Shown: positions 2,966 through 21,580 of the stretch, one piece after another
Numbering within the stretch: position 1 is the first letter of the stretch
Layout: the number at the start of each line of letters is the position of its first letter
IMG/VR virus record: IMGVR_UViG_3300006733_000010
Source of the DNA: a virus
DNA length: 31,244 nt
Reading direction: 5' to 3' (one strand)
Position numbers and translations under genes: made by a program
The notes under the pieces: model-generated
Database searches by the model: none
What the model was told of the DNA's origin: nothing
What the model saw: only the letters and a program-made list of their open reading frames with translations

Positions 2966-3466
2966 CTATAAACCTGGAATCTTGAAATCCTCAAGGTTGG
3001 GCATTTTCCTTTGAGGCTCTCTTTCCTCTCCGTTACTTACCAATATTGTCCTAGTCTTACCTTTCTTCTTCCTTTTAATCCTTCTGAATCTTGATCTCTT
3101 TGGTGGAACAAAACTTTTTGCTAATCTTGTCAAGGCTCCGCCTTCTCTAACTCGCTTCCTTGCTCTTTCTACAGCTACCTTTTTTTCTTCTTCTACTCGA
3201 GCTTTAAACGCTACGTCCCTTATCTCTTTTCTTTCTTCTCTTAACGCTGCTCTCCTCTCTGAACTTTCCTTTAATCTTGCTTTGATATTATGGATAAATC
3301 CTTGCCTATTCTTGTTGTATGGCTCACAATCCATAACGTTCACTACCTTATCTCCATCAGCATCTCTTGTAGGTCGCTTTGCGTCTACTCCAAGCAAACT
3401 AATCGTTTTTTTCTGTGGTGGAAACACATTCTTTGGTTTCCCAAGCATTTTTTTTATGTCTTTCAT
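2966..3466 (-). CDS. Highly basic Lys/Arg-rich protein with one thrombospondin-type-3-like Asp/Cys motif; candidate nucleic-acid-binding virion protein
   Basis: Track ORF. Motif DADGDKVVNVMDCEPYNKNRQ, then RRAALREERKEIR..KRSRFRRIKRKKKGKTR. The ATG lies 1 nt after the stop of the upstream micro-ORF. Confidence 0.65.
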   Translation of the reverse strand: MKDIKKMLGKPKNVFPPQKKTISLLGVDAKRPTRDADGDKVVNVMDCEPYNKNRQGFIHNIKARLKESSERRAALREERKEIRDVAFKARVEEEKKVAVERARKRVREGGALTRLAKSFVPPKRSRFRRIKRKKKGKTRTILVSNGEEREPQRKMPNLEDFKIPGL

Positions 3467-3467
3467 G

Positions 3468-3584
3468 TTACTTTCTCCTTGCTCGCCTTGCCTTTCTAAG
3501 GTTGCGCAACATCCTATCTTTCTTTTTTTTATAGTCAGTCCTCCTTACTCTAAGGTGGCCCTTGACTCGTTTCTGTTTACCCAT
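3468..3584 (-). CDS. 38-aa extremely basic micro-protein (protamine-like)
   Basis: Below the ORF-track size cutoff. rc reads ctAGGAGGTGAtaagtATG GGT AAA CAG..., giving MGKQKRVKGHLRVRRTDYKKKKDRMLRNLRKARRARRK*. Strong SD, tight packing between the neighbouring genes. Confidence 0.55.
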   Translation of the reverse strand: MGKQKRVKGHLRVRRTDYKKKKDRMLRNLRKARRARRK

Positions 3585-3589
3585 ACTTA

Positions 3590-3967: not shown

Positions 3968-4585
3968 CTATCCAAATATACTTCTCCTTGGCTGTTTTTG
4001 TTCTCCTTCTGTCTTCAGGTGCTTTGCTACAATCACTTTTCCAAGATATTCTTTTTCATTGCCTCCTAATGCTCTAAAGAAAGTTGGCTCGGCTGTACTT
4101 CTGAATATTTGAACTATGATATTTGCGTCTGCAAGGTTTATCTCATAATATGAGTTCATAACTGAAATATTCCCGATAACATCGCAAGTGATGCTCCTCA
4201 ACCTGTTGAATATCCATTCTTCTTTGTACTTTGACATCATCAGGTTCTTTGAGGTTAGAGGCTGTATCAGATCAACCATCATCGCAATGGCCCTATCGTT
4301 GCACATAGGGGGTAATTCTGACTGTACCCATTCAGGAGAATCAGCTGTGCCTGTATTGATCTCTCTCCTCAACCTATGGATCATCATATCTACCTCTGGT
4401 CCTATATCCTGCTGCCATCTTGCCAGTTCTTTCTGGTCTTCCTTCTGGTCAAGCTGATATTCGGTAGAAATACCATCAGAAGCCCCAACATTCATCGTGT
4501 TCATCTCTTTGTTGGCCTGTAATTCTCTTCCTAAATCATCTTTCTTCGGTTTGAATATGCTCATGGTATCAATAACTCCTTCCAT
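3968..4585 (-). CDS. Hypothetical protein (probable start 4564, 198 aa)
   Basis: Track ORF. The ATG at 4564 overlaps the stop of micro-ORF 4561..4674 as ATGA, with AAGGAG upstream. Confidence 0.65.
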   Translation of the reverse strand: MEGVIDTMSIFKPKKDDLGRELQANKEMNTMNVGASDGISTEYQLDQKEDQKELARWQQDIGPEVDMMIHRLRREINTGTADSPEWVQSELPPMCNDRAIAMMVDLIQPLTSKNLMMSKYKEEWIFNRLRSITCDVIGNISVMNSYYEINLADANIIVQIFRSTAEPTFFRALGGNEKEYLGKVIVAKHLKTEGEQKQPRRSIFG

Positions 4586-4675: not shown

Positions 4676-7468
4676 TTAAATCCTTATTGCCATCCTCCCA
4701 ACTGGGATTGGCCTTAGTTCTATTCCTGTTAACACGTCTGGTGCTTCTCCTACTTCTAGCAGATGGGTTGCCTCTAAGCTTGGGTTGTATATGGTTCTTC
4801 TCCTTAACTTCTTTTTCTTCCGCTTAACTCTCGTTTTCCCTATCAATGGTTTAGGTTTGATCTTGATGGGAGGAGGTGATGGCTTGAACAATTCCTTGTA
4901 GCTTTCTTTGTAAGATAACTTATAACTAAGTTTATATGAAGGTTTGTAACTGGGCTTATATGATGGCTTATAACTTGGCTTATATGAAGGCTTATAGCTA
5001 GGCTTGTAACTTGGTTTGTAACTAGGTTGGTATGATGGCTTGTAAGATGGTTTATAGCTAGGCTTGTAACTGGGCTTGTAGGATGGAGTATAACTCGGCT
5101 TATAGCTTGGCACATAACTTGGCTTGTAGCTTATAGCATAGCTTGGCTTGTAAGATGTTTTGTAAGATGGTACATAAGATGTTATGCTCTTATAACTTGG
5201 AGTATAATAGCTTGGCTTATAGCTCAATACTTTAGATAATTTATAACTCACTGCAAAACCTAATGGGCTAGTCAATGGTGCCCTTGTGTATGAATAAGAG
5301 CTGACAATCCTCTTAAATGGCAATGCTTTTGGCACTTTGCCACCAAGCAGTTTAAGTGCACCTGCTCCTTGAACTTCATACTCATAGATCGGCACTCTAA
5401 CACCCTCAACTTTAGTATAATATCTTGCTCTTGCCCTAAACAGTTTTGTTTCTGGTGGTATGATTGCCTCAATCTCTGACTTTATGCCTGGCACATATGC
5501 TTTGCCTTTAGGTGCTTTCTGCAATAAGAATTTATACATTGTTCCTCTACCACCAAATAATCTGCTTATCCCTTTAGGGTAAACATATACTGCTGTCGGT
5601 CTCAATCCTTGGGGGAACAGCTCTGCACCATATACTGAGCTTCCTTTGCTTACCTTCAAAAAGTATTGACTCAATGATGGGCTTGTATATAACCCTGGCA
5701 GTTCACTTGTTCCTACTTTGGTTATTGTTGTCTTTGCAAATGTCTCTGGCCCTGCGTGCCAAACTCCTAATCTCTCTTCTGTGCCTGGCAACCTATACTT
5801 TGTATCAATAAATTTCTTCATATGGACTCGTGTTGGTGCTGTTGGAAATGTTTTTTCTCCAGTTAAAACTTTGGGTTCAATTATTTCTTCTGCTAGCACT
5901 TCTTTCATACCTCTTGTTCTAATATAACCAGCAATCTTTGGCCATAATCTTGAGCCTATTCCTGTACCAATAACCATAGCACTAAGCTCTGTCGCTATCC
6001 TACCACCTGCCTCATATTTTGCTTTCCTAGTTGGCAGCATTTTAATCTGTTGGTACTTTGCCAAGCCATACACTGCTGGCAGACCAATGGCAAAACTATA
6101 TTTTATAGGTTTCCATATCTGTACACCTTTTGCTGCTAAAGCTGCACCGCCTAGCTGTAATACTCCACTTACTCCAACAAATGCTGCTGCAGTTACTGCA
6201 AACTTTAATGGCCTTTCCCTAATATCTTCATAAGCTCCACGTCTTAAGCCAGCAATAAAGTCTTTGTCTTGCTGTTTTCTTGTCACCTTAGGGCCTGCCA
6301 ACCAATCTGGCAAGTGTTCTCTCTCCCATTTCCTGATCTTGCTTTCTTCTCCTCTAATTTTCCATTCTTCAATACCTTTCATTGATGGCGTTACTTTCTT
6401 TAACCAACCAGAAATCTTTTTGTTTGCCTTTTCGTATTGAAACTTTGCTTTTTCAATAACTGTAAGTGAATGATACATTATACCAGTGCCTAGTTTTCTT
6501 TCAAATGTTGGCTGTGCTTTTGCTGTTTCTGGCACTAGAGCAAAACCACCAACATATGGAAATGATACAATCTGTTCTCCTTCAAACTGACCTTTGGCTT
6601 TGAGTTTGGTCTCTAAATGTCTGACAAACTCTTGTTTTGTTGTTGTCTCTTCTCTCATCACCTCGACTGGTGTTTCTTTTAGTTCAAGAACGCCTTTTAA
6701 TGCTTTTCTAGGTTGCCATTCTCCACGCTCCCCACTTGGCCTTACTTCTCTGATGAATAGTTCTTGTTCTCTTATGCCTGGTGGCGGTTGTTCTTCTAGT
6801 TCTACTGCTTGACCACCTACACTCTTTCTCAATGTCCAAGGACCAGTTGGTTCTCCTCTTGTACTCAGTGGTCTAACAATTAGTTCTTGTTCTTTTAGTT
6901 CAGGTTGTTCTTGTTCTACAAGTTTCACGTCATAAAATCCTTCTTGTAAACCTTTTTGTCGTGCAGCTTCAACTGTCTCCCTTGTAACTTCTCCACCCCT
7001 CACTACTGCACCTATCCTTTTCTTATGGAATGGAACTGATTTGCCTGTTTCTTTATCTATCACTTCCCTTTGTTCAGCAGGAATCCCACCCATCCTATCT
7101 CTAGCTTGCTGTAACCTTCTCTCTGCATTGCTTATTATCCTATGTTGTCTATCTAATGATCTCCTTTGTGACTTTAGTTGTTGTTGTATCATTTCAGAAC
7201 TAGGGTGTTTTATGAGTTCTATTTCCAATCTCGATATATTGTCCCGTATGCCTTGCAGTTCAGCTCTCTTTTTATTTATTAAGTTTGTCTTTTCAATGAT
7301 CTGTCTTTCATTTCCAGTTGCCCCTTGGGGTGTTGGTATCTTTTGTGTTGTTGTCTGTACTTGAGGTGTACTGGTGTTTGATATCATTGTCCAGTCAGCA
7401 GAAGGTACTACCTCACTCCTAGTAATCGTTACTGTCTTGCCTTCTGGTGTTCTAAATACTCTTACCAT
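4676..7468 (-). CDS. 930-aa structural protein: coiled-coil N-terminal half, central hydrophobic segments, C-terminal (S-Y-K-P)n tandem repeat and poly-basic tail
   Basis: Track ORF and first gene of the minus block. Heptad-like region ELQGIRDNISRLEIELIK..; TM-like FAVTAAAFVGVSGVLQLGGAALAA; about 28 SYxx tetrapeptides; KTRVKRKKKKLRRR. Confidence 0.8.
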   Translation of the reverse strand: MVRVFRTPEGKTVTITRSEVVPSADWTMISNTSTPQVQTTTQKIPTPQGATGNERQIIEKTNLINKKRAELQGIRDNISRLEIELIKHPSSEMIQQQLKSQRRSLDRQHRIISNAERRLQQARDRMGGIPAEQREVIDKETGKSVPFHKKRIGAVVRGGEVTRETVEAARQKGLQEGFYDVKLVEQEQPELKEQELIVRPLSTRGEPTGPWTLRKSVGGQAVELEEQPPPGIREQELFIREVRPSGERGEWQPRKALKGVLELKETPVEVMREETTTKQEFVRHLETKLKAKGQFEGEQIVSFPYVGGFALVPETAKAQPTFERKLGTGIMYHSLTVIEKAKFQYEKANKKISGWLKKVTPSMKGIEEWKIRGEESKIRKWEREHLPDWLAGPKVTRKQQDKDFIAGLRRGAYEDIRERPLKFAVTAAAFVGVSGVLQLGGAALAAKGVQIWKPIKYSFAIGLPAVYGLAKYQQIKMLPTRKAKYEAGGRIATELSAMVIGTGIGSRLWPKIAGYIRTRGMKEVLAEEIIEPKVLTGEKTFPTAPTRVHMKKFIDTKYRLPGTEERLGVWHAGPETFAKTTITKVGTSELPGLYTSPSLSQYFLKVSKGSSVYGAELFPQGLRPTAVYVYPKGISRLFGGRGTMYKFLLQKAPKGKAYVPGIKSEIEAIIPPETKLFRARARYYTKVEGVRVPIYEYEVQGAGALKLLGGKVPKALPFKRIVSSYSYTRAPLTSPLGFAVSYKLSKVLSYKPSYYTPSYKSITSYVPSYKTSYKPSYAISYKPSYVPSYKPSYTPSYKPSYKPSYKPSYKPSYQPSYKPSYKPSYKPSYKPSYKPSYKPSYKPSYKLSYKLSYKESYKELFKPSPPPIKIKPKPLIGKTRVKRKKKKLRRRTIYNPSLEATHLLEVGEAPDVLTGIELRPIPVGRMAIRI
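4895..5248. repeat. 12-nt coding tandem repeat (about 28 units) encoding (SYKP)n
   Basis: Repeated ggcttataactt / ggcttgtaactg variants on the + strand. Positions derived by counting 72 codons back from the stop at 4676. Confidence 0.85.
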
Positions 7469-8160: not shown

Positions 8161-9150
8161 ATGAAATTCCCATGGAAAGGCGGCAGTTGGTATATAGACG
8201 GGTACTTAGCTAAGACATTGAACTCTCTCGTCTATAATGTAACATCAGATTGGGACTTTGTCCTATTGATCACTGGAGATAGAGGCGTTAGAGTCGGTAA
8301 AAGCGTATTGGCTATGACAGTATGCGCATATCTCGCCTACAAACTAGAGAAATTAAACCCGAATGCCTATTCTCTCGACAATATATTCTTTGATAATAAA
8401 GAAATGGTAAAGAAAGCTCAGACATTGCCTAAGTATTCTATCATTCATTACGACGAGGGAAGGGAAGGTTTAGCGGCGAGCAAAGCAATGAAGGCATTCC
8501 AACAAGACTTGTTAGATTTTTTTGCGGAATGCGGCCAGTTGAATCATATCTTTGTAATTGTATGCCCAGACTTCTTTGAACTCAAAGAAAATATATCAGT
8601 AGCTCGGAGTGAATGCCTTATTAACGTCTATAGAAAAGAAAAACTTATCGAGGAGAACGGACAACCAATTGTAAAGTTTTCTCGAGGGCAATTTGAATTC
8701 TTCAATAAGAAAAAGAAACAGATATTATTTGATATTGCAAAATCTCGACGACAAAAGAACTATAATCTTATCAAATGTAACTTTATCGGTTCGTTTACCA
8801 ATCAATATTGCGTCGATAAAGAAATTTACCTCAAGAAAAAAGAGGATAGCTTAAAACGATTTGCGGAGAGACATAAAGAGCAAGAGAGCCAATCAAAGGA
8901 CATTAATTTTAAGAAAGCATTTGGTATATATTATAAAAAGATGGGATATAAAACCCCAGAAGTTTTTGAACTAATGGAGAAGATAACTAACGAAGTTTAT
9001 GGCGAGAAACCATATGTTAAACGCTCTATCGACCGCATTTTTAAAGAATATAAGGATATTGCTACGGAAGCCAAGTTTAAAGACTCATTCGGTGACAATG
9101 CTACTAACATACTCAATAAACACCCCCTCAAGGGGGGGATAGTAATATAA
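8161..9150 (+). CDS. P-loop NTPase (ASCE type), 329 aa
   Basis: Walker A-like LITGDRGVRVGKSV, Walker B SIIHYDEG, then hydrophobic strand HIFVIVCP. Too short for a terminase nuclease domain. Confidence 0.7.
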   Translation: MKFPWKGGSWYIDGYLAKTLNSLVYNVTSDWDFVLLITGDRGVRVGKSVLAMTVCAYLAYKLEKLNPNAYSLDNIFFDNKEMVKKAQTLPKYSIIHYDEGREGLAASKAMKAFQQDLLDFFAECGQLNHIFVIVCPDFFELKENISVARSECLINVYRKEKLIEENGQPIVKFSRGQFEFFNKKKKQILFDIAKSRRQKNYNLIKCNFIGSFTNQYCVDKEIYLKKKEDSLKRFAERHKEQESQSKDINFKKAFGIYYKKMGYKTPEVFELMEKITNEVYGEKPYVKRSIDRIFKEYKDIATEAKFKDSFGDNATNILNKHPLKGGIVI

Positions 9151-10427: not shown

Positions 10428-11390
10428 ATGCTATTCGATAATGAACAATTAACCAAATATAAAGAATATCTACAGCTGCATGAGTACAGTACAAACATAA
10501 AGCAAAATTATGGCTATTATGCAAACAAATTGCTCAATAAAGACTTAACCCAGGAAACAATAGACCAATTATGCCAAAGAAAGCATAATGTTTACAGATC
10601 CTTCTTAAAAACAGTTATTGAATGCCTTAAACTAAGAGATCTAATGGTGCCTACTAAGAAATCAAGAGCTAAGAAGAAAGAGATAATCTATTTTACAGAA
10701 AAAGAAGTAAAAGCGATACTAGACAACACAAATGATAAAAGAATGGCCATAATCATTCGATTGATGTATGAATGCGGCTTAAGGATCAGCGAAGTTATGC
10801 AGTTAAAGGTAAAAAACTTTGATATGGTCAATAAGAAGGTTAAAGGTATTGGGAAAGGTAACAAAGAGTTCAATATGCTACTCCAGGACCATACGTATGC
10901 CTTAATCAAGCATTACATAGATAATAGGGTTATGGATTTAATCCTTGAGGATAGGCCAGAGTACTATGAACATATATTTTGGTGGCCTAAGATTAAACAC
11001 CAAAGGATTAAAGCATTGTATGAATTGAAGAAGCACATTAAAAACATTCTACCATACAAGCAGGATAATGAGGTGTTCAACCATGCCTTAAGGCACTCTT
11101 GTGGCACCCATCTAAGGCGTTTAGGCTTTGATTTAAGAGAGATACAGGAATATCTAAGGCATTCAAGGCTTGAGACTACAGCGGTTTATACAGCTGTTGA
11201 TACAGAAGAGTTGCAGCACAAAGCCCATAAGGCATTCGAGCAAGAACCATTGCCAAGTAACAACCTAGATACTCCACAACCTACTTTTCCAGTGGAAAAT
11301 AGAGAAAAAGAGAAAGACTTAAATAGTAGTACTACTCTAAATAGAACTAATGAGACTAAAGGTGGTATAAATGGAAGAAATGAAATGTAA
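10428..11390 (+). CDS. int: Tyrosine recombinase / integrase (XerC/D-like fold)
   Basis: Catalytic signature read directly: Arg in ECGLRISEV, Lys in GKGNKEF, HxxR in HALRHSCGTHL, His in LRHSRLETT, Tyr in TAVYTAV. AGGTGA SD. Confidence 0.9.
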   Translation: MLFDNEQLTKYKEYLQLHEYSTNIKQNYGYYANKLLNKDLTQETIDQLCQRKHNVYRSFLKTVIECLKLRDLMVPTKKSRAKKKEIIYFTEKEVKAILDNTNDKRMAIIIRLMYECGLRISEVMQLKVKNFDMVNKKVKGIGKGNKEFNMLLQDHTYALIKHYIDNRVMDLILEDRPEYYEHIFWWPKIKHQRIKALYELKKHIKNILPYKQDNEVFNHALRHSCGTHLRRLGFDLREIQEYLRHSRLETTAVYTAVDTEELQHKAHKAFEQEPLPSNNLDTPQPTFPVENREKEKDLNSSTTLNRTNETKGGINGRNEM

Positions 11391-12594: not shown

Positions 12595-12636
12595 ACCTTA
12601 CTGGAATGATATTAACAGGCATATTTGATGTTTACT

Positions 12637-12912
12637 TGGCAAGGCATGGCTAGGCGTGGCAGGGCGTGGCTCGGCAAGGCGAGGCGAGGCACGGCATGGC
12701 TTGGCTTGGCAAGGCTCGGCATGGCGTGGCATGGCTCGGCTCGGCGGGGCGTGGCTTGGCAAAACATAGCAAGGCAAGGTATTTTATGATCATGGCAAGG
12801 CGGGGCTTGGCGGGGCTAGGCTGGGCGGGGCTAGGCGTGGCAAGGCGTGGCTTGGCTTGGCAAGGCTCGGCTGGGCTAGGCGGGGCATAGCAAAGCAAGG
12901 CAAGGTATTTTA
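12637..12912 (+). repeat. Pentanucleotide array cluster A: (NGGCN)x25 + 31-nt box + (NGGCN)x19 + box variant
   Basis: Runs 12637-12761 and 12793-12887; boxes aaacatagcaaggcaaggtattttatgatca (12762-12792) and tagcaaagcaaggcaaggtatttta (12888-12912). GGC is invariant in all 44 units. Confidence 0.9.
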
Positions 12913-12942
12913 CCCAAAGAGGTAAAAACCAGAGGAACTGAA

Positions 12943-13506
12943 ATGAGGAAAGCAATATGTAAATTGGTTAGTGTATCTCCCTATTCACAGGGAAGATACC
13001 ACAAAGCAGAGAAGAAAAGCAAAGAGCTTCATGCAGATTATGAAGCTAGAACTTGGCGTGAGAAATGCCATTGCACAAAGGAAGGTAATATATTTATACC
13101 ACCGATGGCATTTGCCAATTGTATAAAGGAAGCAGCAACATACCTGTCGTTACCGATTCCAGGACAGGGAAAGAGCAAATACACAAAGAACTTTCAGAGT
13201 GGGATACTTGTATTCCAACCATTAGTTTTACCTATAACAAAAGAGAAAGTCGATTCTGAATGGGTGCTTGTCCCTTCTGATGGCAGGCGTGGAGGAACAA
13301 CAAGAGTCGAGAAATGCTTTCCATTAGTCCAGAAATGGCGTGGTGAAGTAACTTTTGTTATATTCGACGACATTATAACAAAGGAAGTGTTTGAGAAAGT
13401 TCTTAGGGAAGCTGGGCAGATAATTGGAGTGGGTAGGTTCAGACCAAAGAACTGGGGATACTATGGCAGATTTGAAGTGGAGGGAATAAAATGGGAAGAG
13501 GGATGA
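12943..13506 (+). CDS. Hypothetical protein, 187 aa, first gene of the cassette between the arrays
   Basis: Track ORF with AGAGGA SD. C-terminal motif GVGRFRPKNWGYYGRFEV. No assignable catalytic motif. Confidence 0.7.
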   Translation: MRKAICKLVSVSPYSQGRYHKAEKKSKELHADYEARTWREKCHCTKEGNIFIPPMAFANCIKEAATYLSLPIPGQGKSKYTKNFQSGILVFQPLVLPITKEKVDSEWVLVPSDGRRGGTTRVEKCFPLVQKWRGEVTFVIFDDIITKEVFEKVLREAGQIIGVGRFRPKNWGYYGRFEVEGIKWEEG

Positions 13507-13973
13507 AAACTATACCAGAAGTTAGCGAGGAAACATTAAAGCTTGAATCATACATAAAGAAGTTCAAGCCAGGAAAGGAGCTTAGCTATATGCAGATACA
13601 ATCAGAAACACATATCAATATGGACAACAAAGGAAAACAATACCTTCGGAGTGCATTCCGAAGGGCAAAACTTGTTTACTCGGCCATCAGAGGATATGGG
13701 GTAAAGATAGCAGAAGGTTCAGATACAATGCCAATATTAGTAAACAAGCTTGGAAGGATAGATCGTGCTGTGAAGAGAGCAGACAAGACACAAAAGACAT
13801 TACAGGGCCAATTCTTCAACAGCCTTTCACCGACTGAACAGAAAGAGATATTGTATATCGGTGCTGTATTTGGTGCTATAAGAGTTGCTGCTGAGAACGG
13901 AAGGTTGGTATATAAGAAAGCGAATGCTATGAGCAATACCAACACGATGTCAATACCATTTCCAGGTAAATAG
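13491..13973 (+). CDS. Putative winged-helix DNA-binding protein, 160 aa, second gene of the cassette
   Basis: Track ORF with GGAGGG SD. The segment LSYMQIQSETHINMDNKGKQYLRSAFRRAKLVYSAIRGYGVKIAEG has a helix-turn-helix plus beta-wing pattern (judged by eye only). Confidence 0.6.
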   Translation: MGRGMKTIPEVSEETLKLESYIKKFKPGKELSYMQIQSETHINMDNKGKQYLRSAFRRAKLVYSAIRGYGVKIAEGSDTMPILVNKLGRIDRAVKRADKTQKTLQGQFFNSLSPTEQKEILYIGAVFGAIRVAAENGRLVYKKANAMSNTNTMSIPFPGK

Positions 13974-13986
13974 TTGTTTATGTTCA

Positions 13987-14316
13987 CGGCCTGGCAAGGC
14001 ATGGCTCGGCAGGGCTAGGCGGGGCTTGGCAAAACATAGCAAGGCAAGGTATTTTTATGATCACGGCTTGGCGGGGCTAGGCGTGGCTTGGCTTGGCTGG
14101 GCTTGGCATGGCTTGGCGGGGCAAAACATAGCAAGGCAAGGTATTTTATGATCATGGCAAGGCTCGGCAGGGCTTGGCATGGCTTGGCGGGGCAAAACAT
14201 AGCAAGGCAAGGTATTTATTTTATGATCACGGCTTGGCCTGGCAAGGCTGGGCTCGGCGGGGCGGGGCATGGCTAGGCTGGGCTAGGCTGGGCGTGGCAA
14301 AACATAGCAAGGCAAG
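13987..14316 (+). repeat. Pentanucleotide array cluster B: (NGGCN)x9, x12, x8, x14, each followed by the conserved box
   Basis: Runs 13987-14031, 14064-14123, 14155-14194, 14230-14299. Boxes 14032-14063 (5 T), 14124-14154 (4 T), 14195-14229 (tttatttt), 14300-14316 (truncated). Confidence 0.9.
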
Positions 14317-14319
14317 TTC

Positions 14320-14350
14320 ACAAGCAGTGGGGAAACCTGCTGCTTGTTTT
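14320..14350 (+). terminator. Hairpin plus T-run closing array cluster B
   Basis: acaagcag (14320-14327) pairs with ctgcttgt (14340-14347), followed by tttt. Confidence 0.4.
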
Positions 14351-14414
14351 CACTAACAAGTTTATATAAATTATTATATATAACTTAGTTATTTAGTTTT
14401 TTAGAGGTGATACA

Positions 14415-15083: not shown

Positions 15084-15272
15084 ATGAAAAATAGCAAAAA
15101 TAGATATCTAATTACAAGACTATTGTTTTTTGGAATAATGTTTGCGTCCCTTGCAGGTGTTATTATCTTAAATAAACCAATTACAGCAATTGTAGCAGCA
15201 TTAACTTATCTGTTCATTATGAGTGGATTTTGTTTGATAGTTGCAAGCGAAAAAAATGAAAAAATTATATAA
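15084..15272 (+). CDS. Two-TM membrane protein, 62 aa
   Basis: Track ORF with GAGAGGT SD. Confidence 0.55.
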   Translation: MKNSKNRYLITRLLFFGIMFASLAGVIILNKPITAIVAALTYLFIMSGFCLIVASEKNEKII

Positions 15273-15411
15273 AAATATAAAAAATTATATAAAAAAATAT
15301 AATATTATATATAATAATATTACGGGGGGGGTTGTGGTAGGTGTGCATTCCCGTAGGATGTACAGTACAGGACTGTACATATACTAAAAACATACACCAC
15401 ACACAGGCCAA
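15273..15411. promoter_or_regulatory. Long intergenic region: pure A/T tract with direct repeats, G8 run, GT/CA-rich arms and a 9-bp hairpin
   Basis: An A/T-only stretch of ~68 nt (15255-15322) contains aaaattatataaaaa twice. G8 at 15324-15331. Hairpin atgtacagt-acagg-actgtacat at 15358-15380. Confidence 0.5.
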
Positions 15412-21382: not shown

Positions 21383-21580
21383 ATGTCTTACGAAGATAAT
21401 AAGTCTGGCGATGGCTCTGGCTATGGCTCTGGCTCTGGCTATGGCTCTGGCTCTGGCTATGGCTCTGGCGATGGCTCTGGCTCTGGCTATGGCTCTGGCT
21501 ATGGCTCTGGCGATGGCGATGGCTCTGGCTCTGGCTCTGGCGATGGCGATGGCTATGGCTCTGGCTCTGGCTATGGCTAA
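21383..21580 (+). CDS. 65-aa low-complexity Gly/Ser/Tyr/Asp repeat protein
   Basis: MSYEDNKSGDGSGYGSGSGYGSGSGYGSGDGSGSGYGSGYGSGDGDGSGSGSGDGDGYGSGSGYG. Its ATG is 2 nt after the previous stop. Coding strand chosen by operon context. Confidence 0.5.
   Translation: MSYEDNKSGDGSGYGSGSGYGSGSGYGSGDGSGSGYGSGYGSGDGDGSGSGSGDGDGYGSGSGYG

Follow-up and report, generated by a model that had tools for sequence, protein, structure and literature searches.

VIPR (Viral Interference Programmable Repeat) is a phage-borne, CRISPR-like system for RNA-guided DNA silencing that was described in 2026 in two preprints (10.64898/2026.04.26.720920, dated 25 June 2026; 10.64898/2026.04.26.720927). Here we describe six runs of a pentanucleotide repeat and the two genes between them, which lie in a 31,244-nucleotide (nt) stretch of DNA, IMG/VR virus record IMGVR_UViG_3300006733_000010 (the window is this whole stretch). 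With high confidence we identify the region as a complete VIPR locus, carried by an uncultured temperate phage, and the runs as its guide-RNA arrays. The original prediction, which had been made from the letters of the window, knew of no described element with this architecture; the two preprints describe one, and the locus is a new example of a kind known since they appeared.

A VIPR system comprises an ancestral RAMP of approximately 20 kDa named Vipr, an accessory protein named Vap, and guide RNAs named vrRNAs. A vrRNA typically has 9 to 16 YNNGG repeats (minimum four), with a conserved GGY, a hypervariable NN, and an invariant 3′ tail, and the vrRNA genes are located upstream and downstream of the protein genes; most of the loci belong to phages or prophages. 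Under a 1-nt-skip rule, and with no need for a protospacer-adjacent motif (PAM), the NN dinucleotides base-pair with either strand of double-stranded DNA (dsDNA). A bound target is repressed at the level of transcription; in nature, the targets belong to competitors (phages, satellites, and prophages). In experiments, repression was programmable in trans and was set only by NN. Small-RNA sequencing shows the vrRNAs as RNA, the preprint's own loci have no self-target, and seven types (I to VII) are distinguished, with vap predicted to be DNA-binding in types II, VI, and VII (10.64898/2026.04.26.720920). Cryo-electron microscopy (cryo-EM) revealed a right-handed RNA-protein filament with one Vipr protomer per pentanucleotide repeat. 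The filament sequesters G1, G2, and Y3 and exposes NN, and up to 30 repeats occur in natural vrRNAs (10.64898/2026.04.26.720927). An ancestral position relative to CRISPR RAMPs has been proposed for VIPR.

For direct comparison we located the VIPR locus of the experimentally characterized Escherichia phage SUSP1 at NC_028808 27499-29511 (minus strand), around agp039 (Vipr) and agp038 (Vap1). Its GGT-NN arrays, one upstream and three downstream, match the published description. The window has a protein with a RAMP fold outside CRISPR, homology of this protein to SUSP1 Vipr, a vap gene, vrRNA tracts, and a 3′ tail, and thus the defining VIPR features that can be tested in silico, with the exception of a folded tail, which in the SUSP1 clade is a pseudoknot. 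The setting is that of a phage: a tyrosine integrase is encoded at 10428-11390 and HNH/NinG genes are found on the parent contig. No cas genes were found among the ten open reading frames (ORFs) scanned around the locus.

Anatomy of the repeat runs

The window contains six NGGCN runs, all on the plus strand between positions 12637 and 14299, with 8 to 25 units each and 87 units in total. GGC occupies unit positions 2 to 4 in 87/87 units and position 5 is C in only two, and a script returned these counts and the run coordinates exactly as originally predicted. The pattern (GGCNN)7GGC has 45 overlapping matches in the window, all of which are on the plus strand and within the six runs; it was absent from 100 dinucleotide-preserving shuffles (chance expectation 0), and a scan of both strands of the window found no comparable run outside the six. 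The pentanucleotide tracts are the only array-like repeats at the locus in a repeat scan of the window, and a gathering-threshold Rfam scan and a tRNA scan of the window returned no RNA family and no tRNA. The runs have 73% GC (49% G and 23% C) in a window of 37% GC, where 65-70% and roughly 35% had first been estimated. The NN positions of the 87 units comprise 12 different dinucleotides. One sub-block of 24 nt occurs twice (at 12697 and 12848), and sub-blocks are also common to different guides, as would be expected if guides duplicate and then diverge. Growth of the arrays by duplication, as had been proposed, is borne out, with recombination as a second process.

Two vrRNA units are located upstream and four downstream of the vipr and vap genes, all on the plus strand (Table 1), and the bracketing of a two-gene cassette by the runs was thus correctly recognized at the outset. 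A box of about 31 nt had been described after each run. It is present, with a variant copy after run 2 and a truncated last copy, but it is a composite of an 18-nt 3′ tail (AAACATAGCAAGGCAAGG) and a 13-17-nt AT-rich leader, TATTT(T/G)ATG(A/T)T(C/T)A. The leader belongs to the following unit, because it is found before runs 1 and 3 as well, where there is no preceding tail. Five of the six copies have an unchanged tail core, AAACATAGCAAGGCAAG, followed by (G), which corresponds to the constant 3′ tail of VIPR, and the copy after run 2 has the variant TAGCAAAGCAAGGCAAGG; T-run indels distinguish the copies. The tail is itself a short phased sequence, AAC-AT-AGC-AA-GGC-AA-GG, and the arrays examined in relatives end in the same manner (XYZaaXYZaaXYZaagg, where XYZ is the fixed triplet), close to the next start codon. 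The GATC-containing palindrome ATGATCAT, which had been taken for a conserved part of the box, is not kept in the closest relative.

The leader of vrRNA1 may be where the RNA is processed, or it may hold a promoter −10/start region. A sigma-70-like TTGGCA-N18-TATTTT, a consensus match only, is present at 12756-12785; it holds for two units only, and we rejected the idea that the arrays are promoter arrays. At the downstream end, a hairpin followed by a T-run closes the second cluster, as predicted, and resembles an intrinsic terminator, a function it would presumably serve here. RNAfold predicted that the tracts can self-pair via GGC:GCU (z between −1 and −5), and we dropped the idea of selection for unstructured RNA. 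Two further early candidates were also discarded: arrays of primase recognition trinucleotides (T7 GTC, T4 GTT), and small peptides running from the box ATG to the TAG of the next box, which stay in frame only if the number of units is divisible by 3 and are broken up by CTAGG stops.

Table 1. Features of the putative VIPR locus in the window and example loci with other fixed triplets.
Feature	Record	Position	Strand	Description
vrRNA1 leader	window	12615-12636	+	ACAGGCATATTTGATGTTTACT; holds the TATTTGATGTTTAC motif common to the leaders of the other five units
vrRNA1 repeat tract	window	12637-12761	+	25 x NGGCN; guide NN: AA AT TA GT AG GT TC AA GA GA AC AT TT TT AA TC AT GT AT TC TC GG GT TT AA
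vrRNA1 3′ tail	window	12762-12779	+	AAACATAGCAAGGCAAGG; degenerate units in 5-nt phase, NN mostly AA
vrRNA2 leader	window	12780-12792	+	TATTTTATGATCA
vrRNA2 repeat tract	window	12793-12887	+	19 units
vrRNA2 variant 3′ tail	window	12888-12912	+	TAGCAAAGCAAGGCAAGGTATTTTA; followed by the ribosome-binding region of vipr
vipr	window	12943-13506	+	187-aa Cas7-like RAMP (AlphaFold2, Foldseek, hhalign, HMM)
vap	window	13503-13973	+	vap1-like accessory; N-terminal winged helix and long helical hairpin (AlphaFold2 model)
vrRNA3	window	13974-14049	+	leader TTGTTTATGTTCA; 9 units (13987-14031); tail 14032-14049
vrRNA4	window	14050-14141	+	leader 14050-14063; 12 units (14064-14123); tail 14124-14141
vrRNA5	window	14142-14212	+	leader 14142-14154; 8 units (14155-14194); tail 14195-14212
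vrRNA6	window	14213-14316	+	leader 14213-14229; 14 units (14230-14299); truncated tail 14300-14316
Terminator-like hairpin	window	14320-14352	+	12-bp stem, GAAA loop, T-run; closes the locus; fold of 14230-14352 has z = −5.4
Triplet example	L039	3830-3990		GAC
Triplet example	L064	3890-3980		GTC
Triplet example	L055	1860-1925		CGC
Triplet example	L104	1740-1800		CTC
Triplet example	L093	700-775		CAC
Triplet example	L076	2760-2935		GTT

The Vipr and Vap proteins

An AlphaFold2 model of the vipr product (predicted local distance difference test 89.9, predicted template-modeling score 0.83) was compared with the PDB using Foldseek, and the top 50 matches were all of the Cas7 family, including type VII Cas7, Csm3, Cmr4, Cmr6, and domains of Cas7-11 (best E 1.2e-7, template-modeling score up to 0.59, 98 matches at E<=1e-3). 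In BFVD the model matched uncharacterized viral proteins and one annotated as 'Cas system-associated RAMP'. Family scans assigned the protein only to phrog_4652 (unknown function), and neither cassette ORF matched a Pfam family. From the secondary structure of the model and the conserved columns, a candidate G-loop (IGVGRFRPKNWGYYGRF, residues 161-177) and a candidate thumb hairpin (residues 104-129) can be assigned.

Homology to SUSP1 Vipr (agp039) was not detected by plain tblastn, but is evident at the profile level: an alignment of window-type Viprs matched agp039 in hhalign over 151 columns (probability 97%, E 8.9e-11), and a hidden Markov model (HMM) of the window-type Vipr found it in hmmsearch with an E of 5.9e-12. 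The two share the G-loop GVG(D/R)(W/F)RP...GRF, and the window Vipr is approximately 28% identical to SUSP1 Vipr over the aligned columns. A Cas7-like partner and the published filament bear out the early suggestion that a fixed triplet followed by two free nucleotides reflects recognition by a helical oligomer, each subunit of which reads one triplet.

The second gene, vap, likely starts at the ATG at 13503, which overlaps the vipr stop as ATGA; the mechanically called ORF starts at 13491. Its homologue in the closest relative (L004) begins MKTIPQVSQE. The model combines a winged helix with a coiled coil, and Foldseek returned only generic, weak winged-helix matches (E>0.02). A profile of this gene, iterated over the collected loci, matched SUSP1 agp038 (vap1) with an E of 3.7e-8. 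The partner gene was recognized in 61/114 loci with the first profile and as 100 ORFs after iteration, and relatives keep a gene of approximately 158 aa adjoining vipr.

That direct repeats flank a cassette whose second product is modeled as a winged-helix DNA-binding protein would also suit a dsDNA nucleation track for a multimeric protein, be it a partition centromere, a packaging or condensation signal, or an iteron origin, as the original prediction proposed. Formally, this arrangement is like that of parC/ParR or the omega heptads. We nevertheless regard such a track as highly improbable. The partner protein is an RNA-binding RAMP and not ParR, a ribbon-helix-helix (RHH) protein, or Rep; scans of the cassette and its neighbors found no adjoining partition ATPase or replication initiator; and the arrays have a strict strand orientation in the loci examined and no fixed genome position such as cos/pac or an origin. 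The published small-RNA sequencing (10.64898/2026.04.26.720920) and cryo-EM (10.64898/2026.04.26.720927) show an RNA-protein filament, and the array in the window would likewise act as RNA and not as a DNA track.

Conservation, triplet switching, and guide turnover

The window Vipr has more than 1,161 homologous protein clusters; the best matches are 60-84% identical, and most of those listed are on 1-2-kb contigs. The comparative set comprises 80 IMG/VR loci, from an alignment-based search, and 27 GTDB loci. In these loci, period-5 tracts total 10,005 nt, compared with 129 nt for period 4, 923 nt for period 6, and 324 nt for period 7. Arrays are located beside vipr in 86/94 distinct loci, so the association of gene and array extends over about 90 loci and the co-occurrence check on homologues of this gene that had been suggested gave a strongly positive answer. 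All arrays examined are on the gene strand. The closest relative has GGC-NN runs at the same places, and a prophage in a Porticoccaceae metagenome-assembled genome (MAG) has period-5 runs with the fixed triplet GTT, ending AAGACAAGTCAAGGTTTTTT. The period-5 excess, the linkage to vipr, the gene-strand polarity, and the common array ending indicate a conserved gene-plus-array system and not a microsatellite.

Members of the clade are found in prophages of Proteobacteria, Chloroflexi, Planctomycetes, Cyanobacteria, and Bacteroidota, and in one Nanoarchaeia MAG. In the latter (Candidatus Nanoarchaeia, DATDSF010000038.1; L113) a divergent Vipr with 36% identity is encoded at 4001-4543, and ATT-NN period-5 tracts follow downstream at approximately 5230-5460; with this locus, both the clade and a scaffold made of A and T only would reach into the DPANN archaea or viruses of these. 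Among cultured phages and plasmids, tblastn of Vipr gave one match at 25% identity, in Gordonia phage Trine, and no plasmid match; Trine gp40/41 may be a further VIPR locus. Mycobacterium phage Donkeykong (NC_051648.1; L139) carries a real but misannotated VIPR locus in a cultured phage. The annotated coding sequence of gp48, a 'hypothetical protein', is an approximately 350-nt (GGCNN)n array (blastn match; L139 2500-2850, record ~36883-37233). The adjacent gp49 is a Vipr homologue (2987-3586, record ~37370-37969) with a GVGDWRP G-loop and the C-terminal end GGVGDWRP...YGRYEVQI, and its true start is approximately 147 nt downstream of the annotated one. The locus sits between anti-repressor and excisionase genes. 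Arrays of this kind are thus currently annotated as hypothetical proteins.

The many 1-2-kb contigs, which often break at the arrays, together with copy numbers that differ between assemblies and small ORFs that run through the runs, could also suggest an ordinary microsatellite with a high mutation rate, a product of misassembly, or a repeat that is cryptically coding. We consider this barely conceivable. The same units with the same NN strings recur in four independent assemblies, a fixed triplet beside a varying NN is the opposite of what slippage produces, and the arrays are linked to vipr across phyla. All frames carry stops and the period of 5 breaks any frame, which upholds the early view that conservation is at the nucleotide and not the protein level.

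Vipr is 100% identical in the four assemblies, which come from ENA, JGI, and Logan, yet their guide content differs. One has a seventh vrRNA of 19 units after vrRNA6 (L116, 11391-11485), one lacks vrRNA5 (L118, 1101-1454), and one has a chimera of vrRNA1 and vrRNA2 that is joined in their shared TT-TT-AA-TC block (L117, 643-742). This polymorphism could be real population variation or assembly collapse; gain, loss, and chimerism are expected for guides under arms-race selection.

The position of the arrays relative to genes allows another interpretation, in which they are 5′ leader or operator RNAs by which oligomeric Vipr controls its own translation and that of vap and the downstream gene, in place of a guide function or alongside it. 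TRAP on (G/U)AG-NN repeats and T4 gp32 on its unstructured leader are parallels for such autoregulation. In many relatives the array end (...XYZaaXYZaagg) lies within approximately 5-30 nt of where translation of vipr, vap, or the following gene begins (Shine-Dalgarno sequence or start codon), the tail of vrRNA2 is 31 nt upstream of the vipr ATG, and the arrays examined are all in the sense orientation. We find autoregulation very unlikely, however. Four of the six units are located after vap and before the terminator, where there is no gene to regulate, and hypervariable NN and fast array turnover have no role in an autoregulatory leader. The published programmable repression in trans, set only by NN, also speaks against it (10.64898/2026.04.26.720920).

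The fixed triplet itself varies within the clade. In 61 loci with at least eight units, all from a single Vipr clade with 43-84% identity to the window protein, it is GGC in 29, GAC in 12, CGC in eight, GTC and CTC in four each, GTT in two, and CAC and ATT in one each (examples in Table 1). Arrays with alternative triplets are always on the gene strand and have a matching tail, XYZaaXYZaagg. The triplet classes are polyphyletic on a neighbor-joining tree of Vipr, which suggests repeated switching. Two residues covary with the triplet, at positions that align to the G2 contact (R138) and the G1 contact (D177) of SUSP1 Vipr. At the first, Y126 replaces F126 in 9/12 loci with a C-initial triplet and in 0/49 others (Fisher p 1.3e-8, uncorrected for phylogeny); at the second, R165 is kept in 43/43 loci with GGC, CGC, GTC, or GTT and in 5/18 with GAC, CTC, CAC, or ATT (p 1.3e-9, likewise uncorrected).

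The preprint text names as alternatives only NNNGG, YNNNG, and NNNNG, each with at least one G retained (10.64898/2026.04.26.720920); its fig. S17 may or may not include scaffolds whose middle base is A or T. If they are not already part of the preprint's 'related consensus', the constant triplet would not be universally GGY, and the clade would provide natural orthogonal pairs of Vipr and scaffold and a first map of scaffold-specificity residues, a proposal that we advance tentatively and think somewhat more apt to fail than to hold. If true, co-evolution of the scaffold triplet with the protein pocket matters for engineering orthogonal VIPR tools. Triplet switching and the Donkeykong array may go beyond the VIPR account in the preprint text.

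The same variation bears on the proposal of G-quadruplexes or R-loops in the G-rich transcripts or DNA, or of a role for these as NGG/CCN PAM decoys. This fits the high G content of one strand of the runs. G-quadruplexes can be excluded as a general function, because relatives use GAC, CTC, CAC, or GTT instead of GGC, and arrays with these triplets, GTC, or ATT form no quadruplex and mimic no NGG but retain the 5-nt period together with the tail and the polarity; we give both the structural and the decoy version, each raised in the original prediction, next to no credence.

Proposed mechanism and comparison with known systems

By analogy with the published system, each unit would be transcribed as a guide RNA in which a short leader is followed by n repeats of GGC plus NN and then by the constant 3′ tail. 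Vipr, a minimal Cas7-like RAMP, would polymerize on it with one protomer per repeat, flip out and clamp every GGC, and expose the two variable bases. The joined NN would pair with one strand of a dsDNA target, skipping each third target base (NNxNNx...), so that the two bases that had been regarded as free spacer would be the payload that specifies the target. Target binding would repress transcription, presumably of a competing phage, satellite, or prophage as in the characterized systems, and the winged-helix Vap may strengthen the repression.

Several observations weigh against this assignment. RNAfold predicted no stable tail structure, and the tail is mostly unpaired or weakly paired with the repeats; the preprint states the pseudoknot for the SUSP1 clade only, and a structured tail is therefore not family-defining. 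The SUSP1 contacts D177 and R138 align to R165 and F126 of the window protein, and because these residues differ, the details of base recognition may not be the same. At this locus, RNA expression and processing and ribonucleoprotein formation, as well as filament assembly, 1-nt-skip pairing, and the role against competitors, are carried over from the two preprints. Searches for a foreign target, which used exact seeds only, gave 0 matches in five 1-nt-skip seed scans of IMG/VR, and one metagenome scan with an exact 18-base seed gave 17 matches, none of which extends past the seed (19-44% match outside it); we judge 17 to be about the chance number for an 18-base seed. Searches of IMG/VR with the exact box sequence and with the single protein returned nothing, the phage itself included, and its competitors may be missing there too; the alignment-based search did recover relatives. 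Within the window, no self-target was found under the 1-nt-skip rule (best matches 58-78%, chance level). An all-against-all comparison of 91 guides from relatives with 2.1 Mb of sequence showed no excess of skip 1 over skips 0 and 2, a result that is uninformative and not negative.

VIPR is minimal, with one protein of approximately 20 kDa and one guide of approximately 100 nt, and the locus adds a well-resolved natural example from a low-GC uncultured phage. It displays six guides (seven in a sister contig), gain, loss, and recombination of guides among phages that are identical in other respects, and a tail that departs from the characterized one.

The window contains further repeats and an ORF of interest outside the locus. 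A 12-nt tandem repeat at 4904-5158 (minus strand), within a 930-aa ORF (4676-7468) that has no family match, encodes approximately 20 copies of PSYK (…KPSYKPSYKPSY…); the protein may be a fiber- or adhesin-like structural protein. At 21383-21580 (plus strand) a 6-nt TCTGGC repeat with approximately 29 copies encodes a 65-aa low-complexity protein of Gly, Ser, Tyr, and Asp (SGYGSGSGYG…). Six copies of an AT-rich 10-nt tandem repeat, AAAATTATAT, are intergenic at 15250-15320 and could mark an origin or a regulatory region. Upstream of the integrase, a 329-aa ORF at 8161-9150 (plus strand) has a Walker-A-like GDRGVRVGKS and matches only phrog_38691 (unknown function).

Among known systems, the closest are the VIPR loci of SUSP1 and a Pseudomonas fulva prophage (vipr-vap1, type II). 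The window shares with them the two-gene operon, vrRNAs upstream and downstream on the same strand, GGY plus NN, a constant 3′ tail, a RAMP of approximately 20 kDa, a Vap, the phage or prophage context, and the lack of a self-target. The locus differs from SUSP1 in that Y is always C, whereas SUSP1 uses GGT, and in its short phased tail with no predicted hairpin or pseudoknot, compared with the approximately 40-nt pseudoknot of SUSP1. Its units abut head to tail, with only the leader between them.

Class 1 CRISPR-Cas effectors (Cas7, Csm3, Cmr4) have in common with Vipr the RAMP fold (RNA recognition motif core, G-loop, thumb hairpin), the helical guide-RNA filament, and base flipping by the thumb. 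They require a multi-gene cas operon (Cas5, Cas7, a large subunit, and usually Cas6), whereas the window has one RAMP gene only, no Cas families in the scanned neighbors, and no 25-40-nt repeat-spacer array. VIPR has a period of 5 with three bases sequestered and two read, and class 1 CRISPR a period of 6 with five read and one flipped; the VIPR guide, unlike that of class 1 CRISPR, is non-contiguous, with the constant part interleaved with the variable part.

The geometry of TRAP (trp RNA-binding attenuation protein) is alike: each subunit takes one triplet, the spacers have two bases, and the oligomer wraps single-stranded RNA. TRAP is, however, a closed 11-mer ring of beta-sandwich subunits whose spacer bases carry no information and which controls attenuation and translation of trp genes, and its fold is unmatched here: the protein adjacent to the arrays has Foldseek matches to RAMPs and no Pfam TrpBP match. 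TIGR-Tas (tandem interspaced guide RNA) differs in its Nop-domain effector, its contiguous dual spacers, and the lack of a pentanucleotide code. Iteron and centromere systems (ParR-parC, omega heptads, Rep iterons) rely on RHH, ParR, and Rep families, which are absent from the cassette and the scanned neighbors; the partner protein of the arrays is an RNA-binding RAMP.

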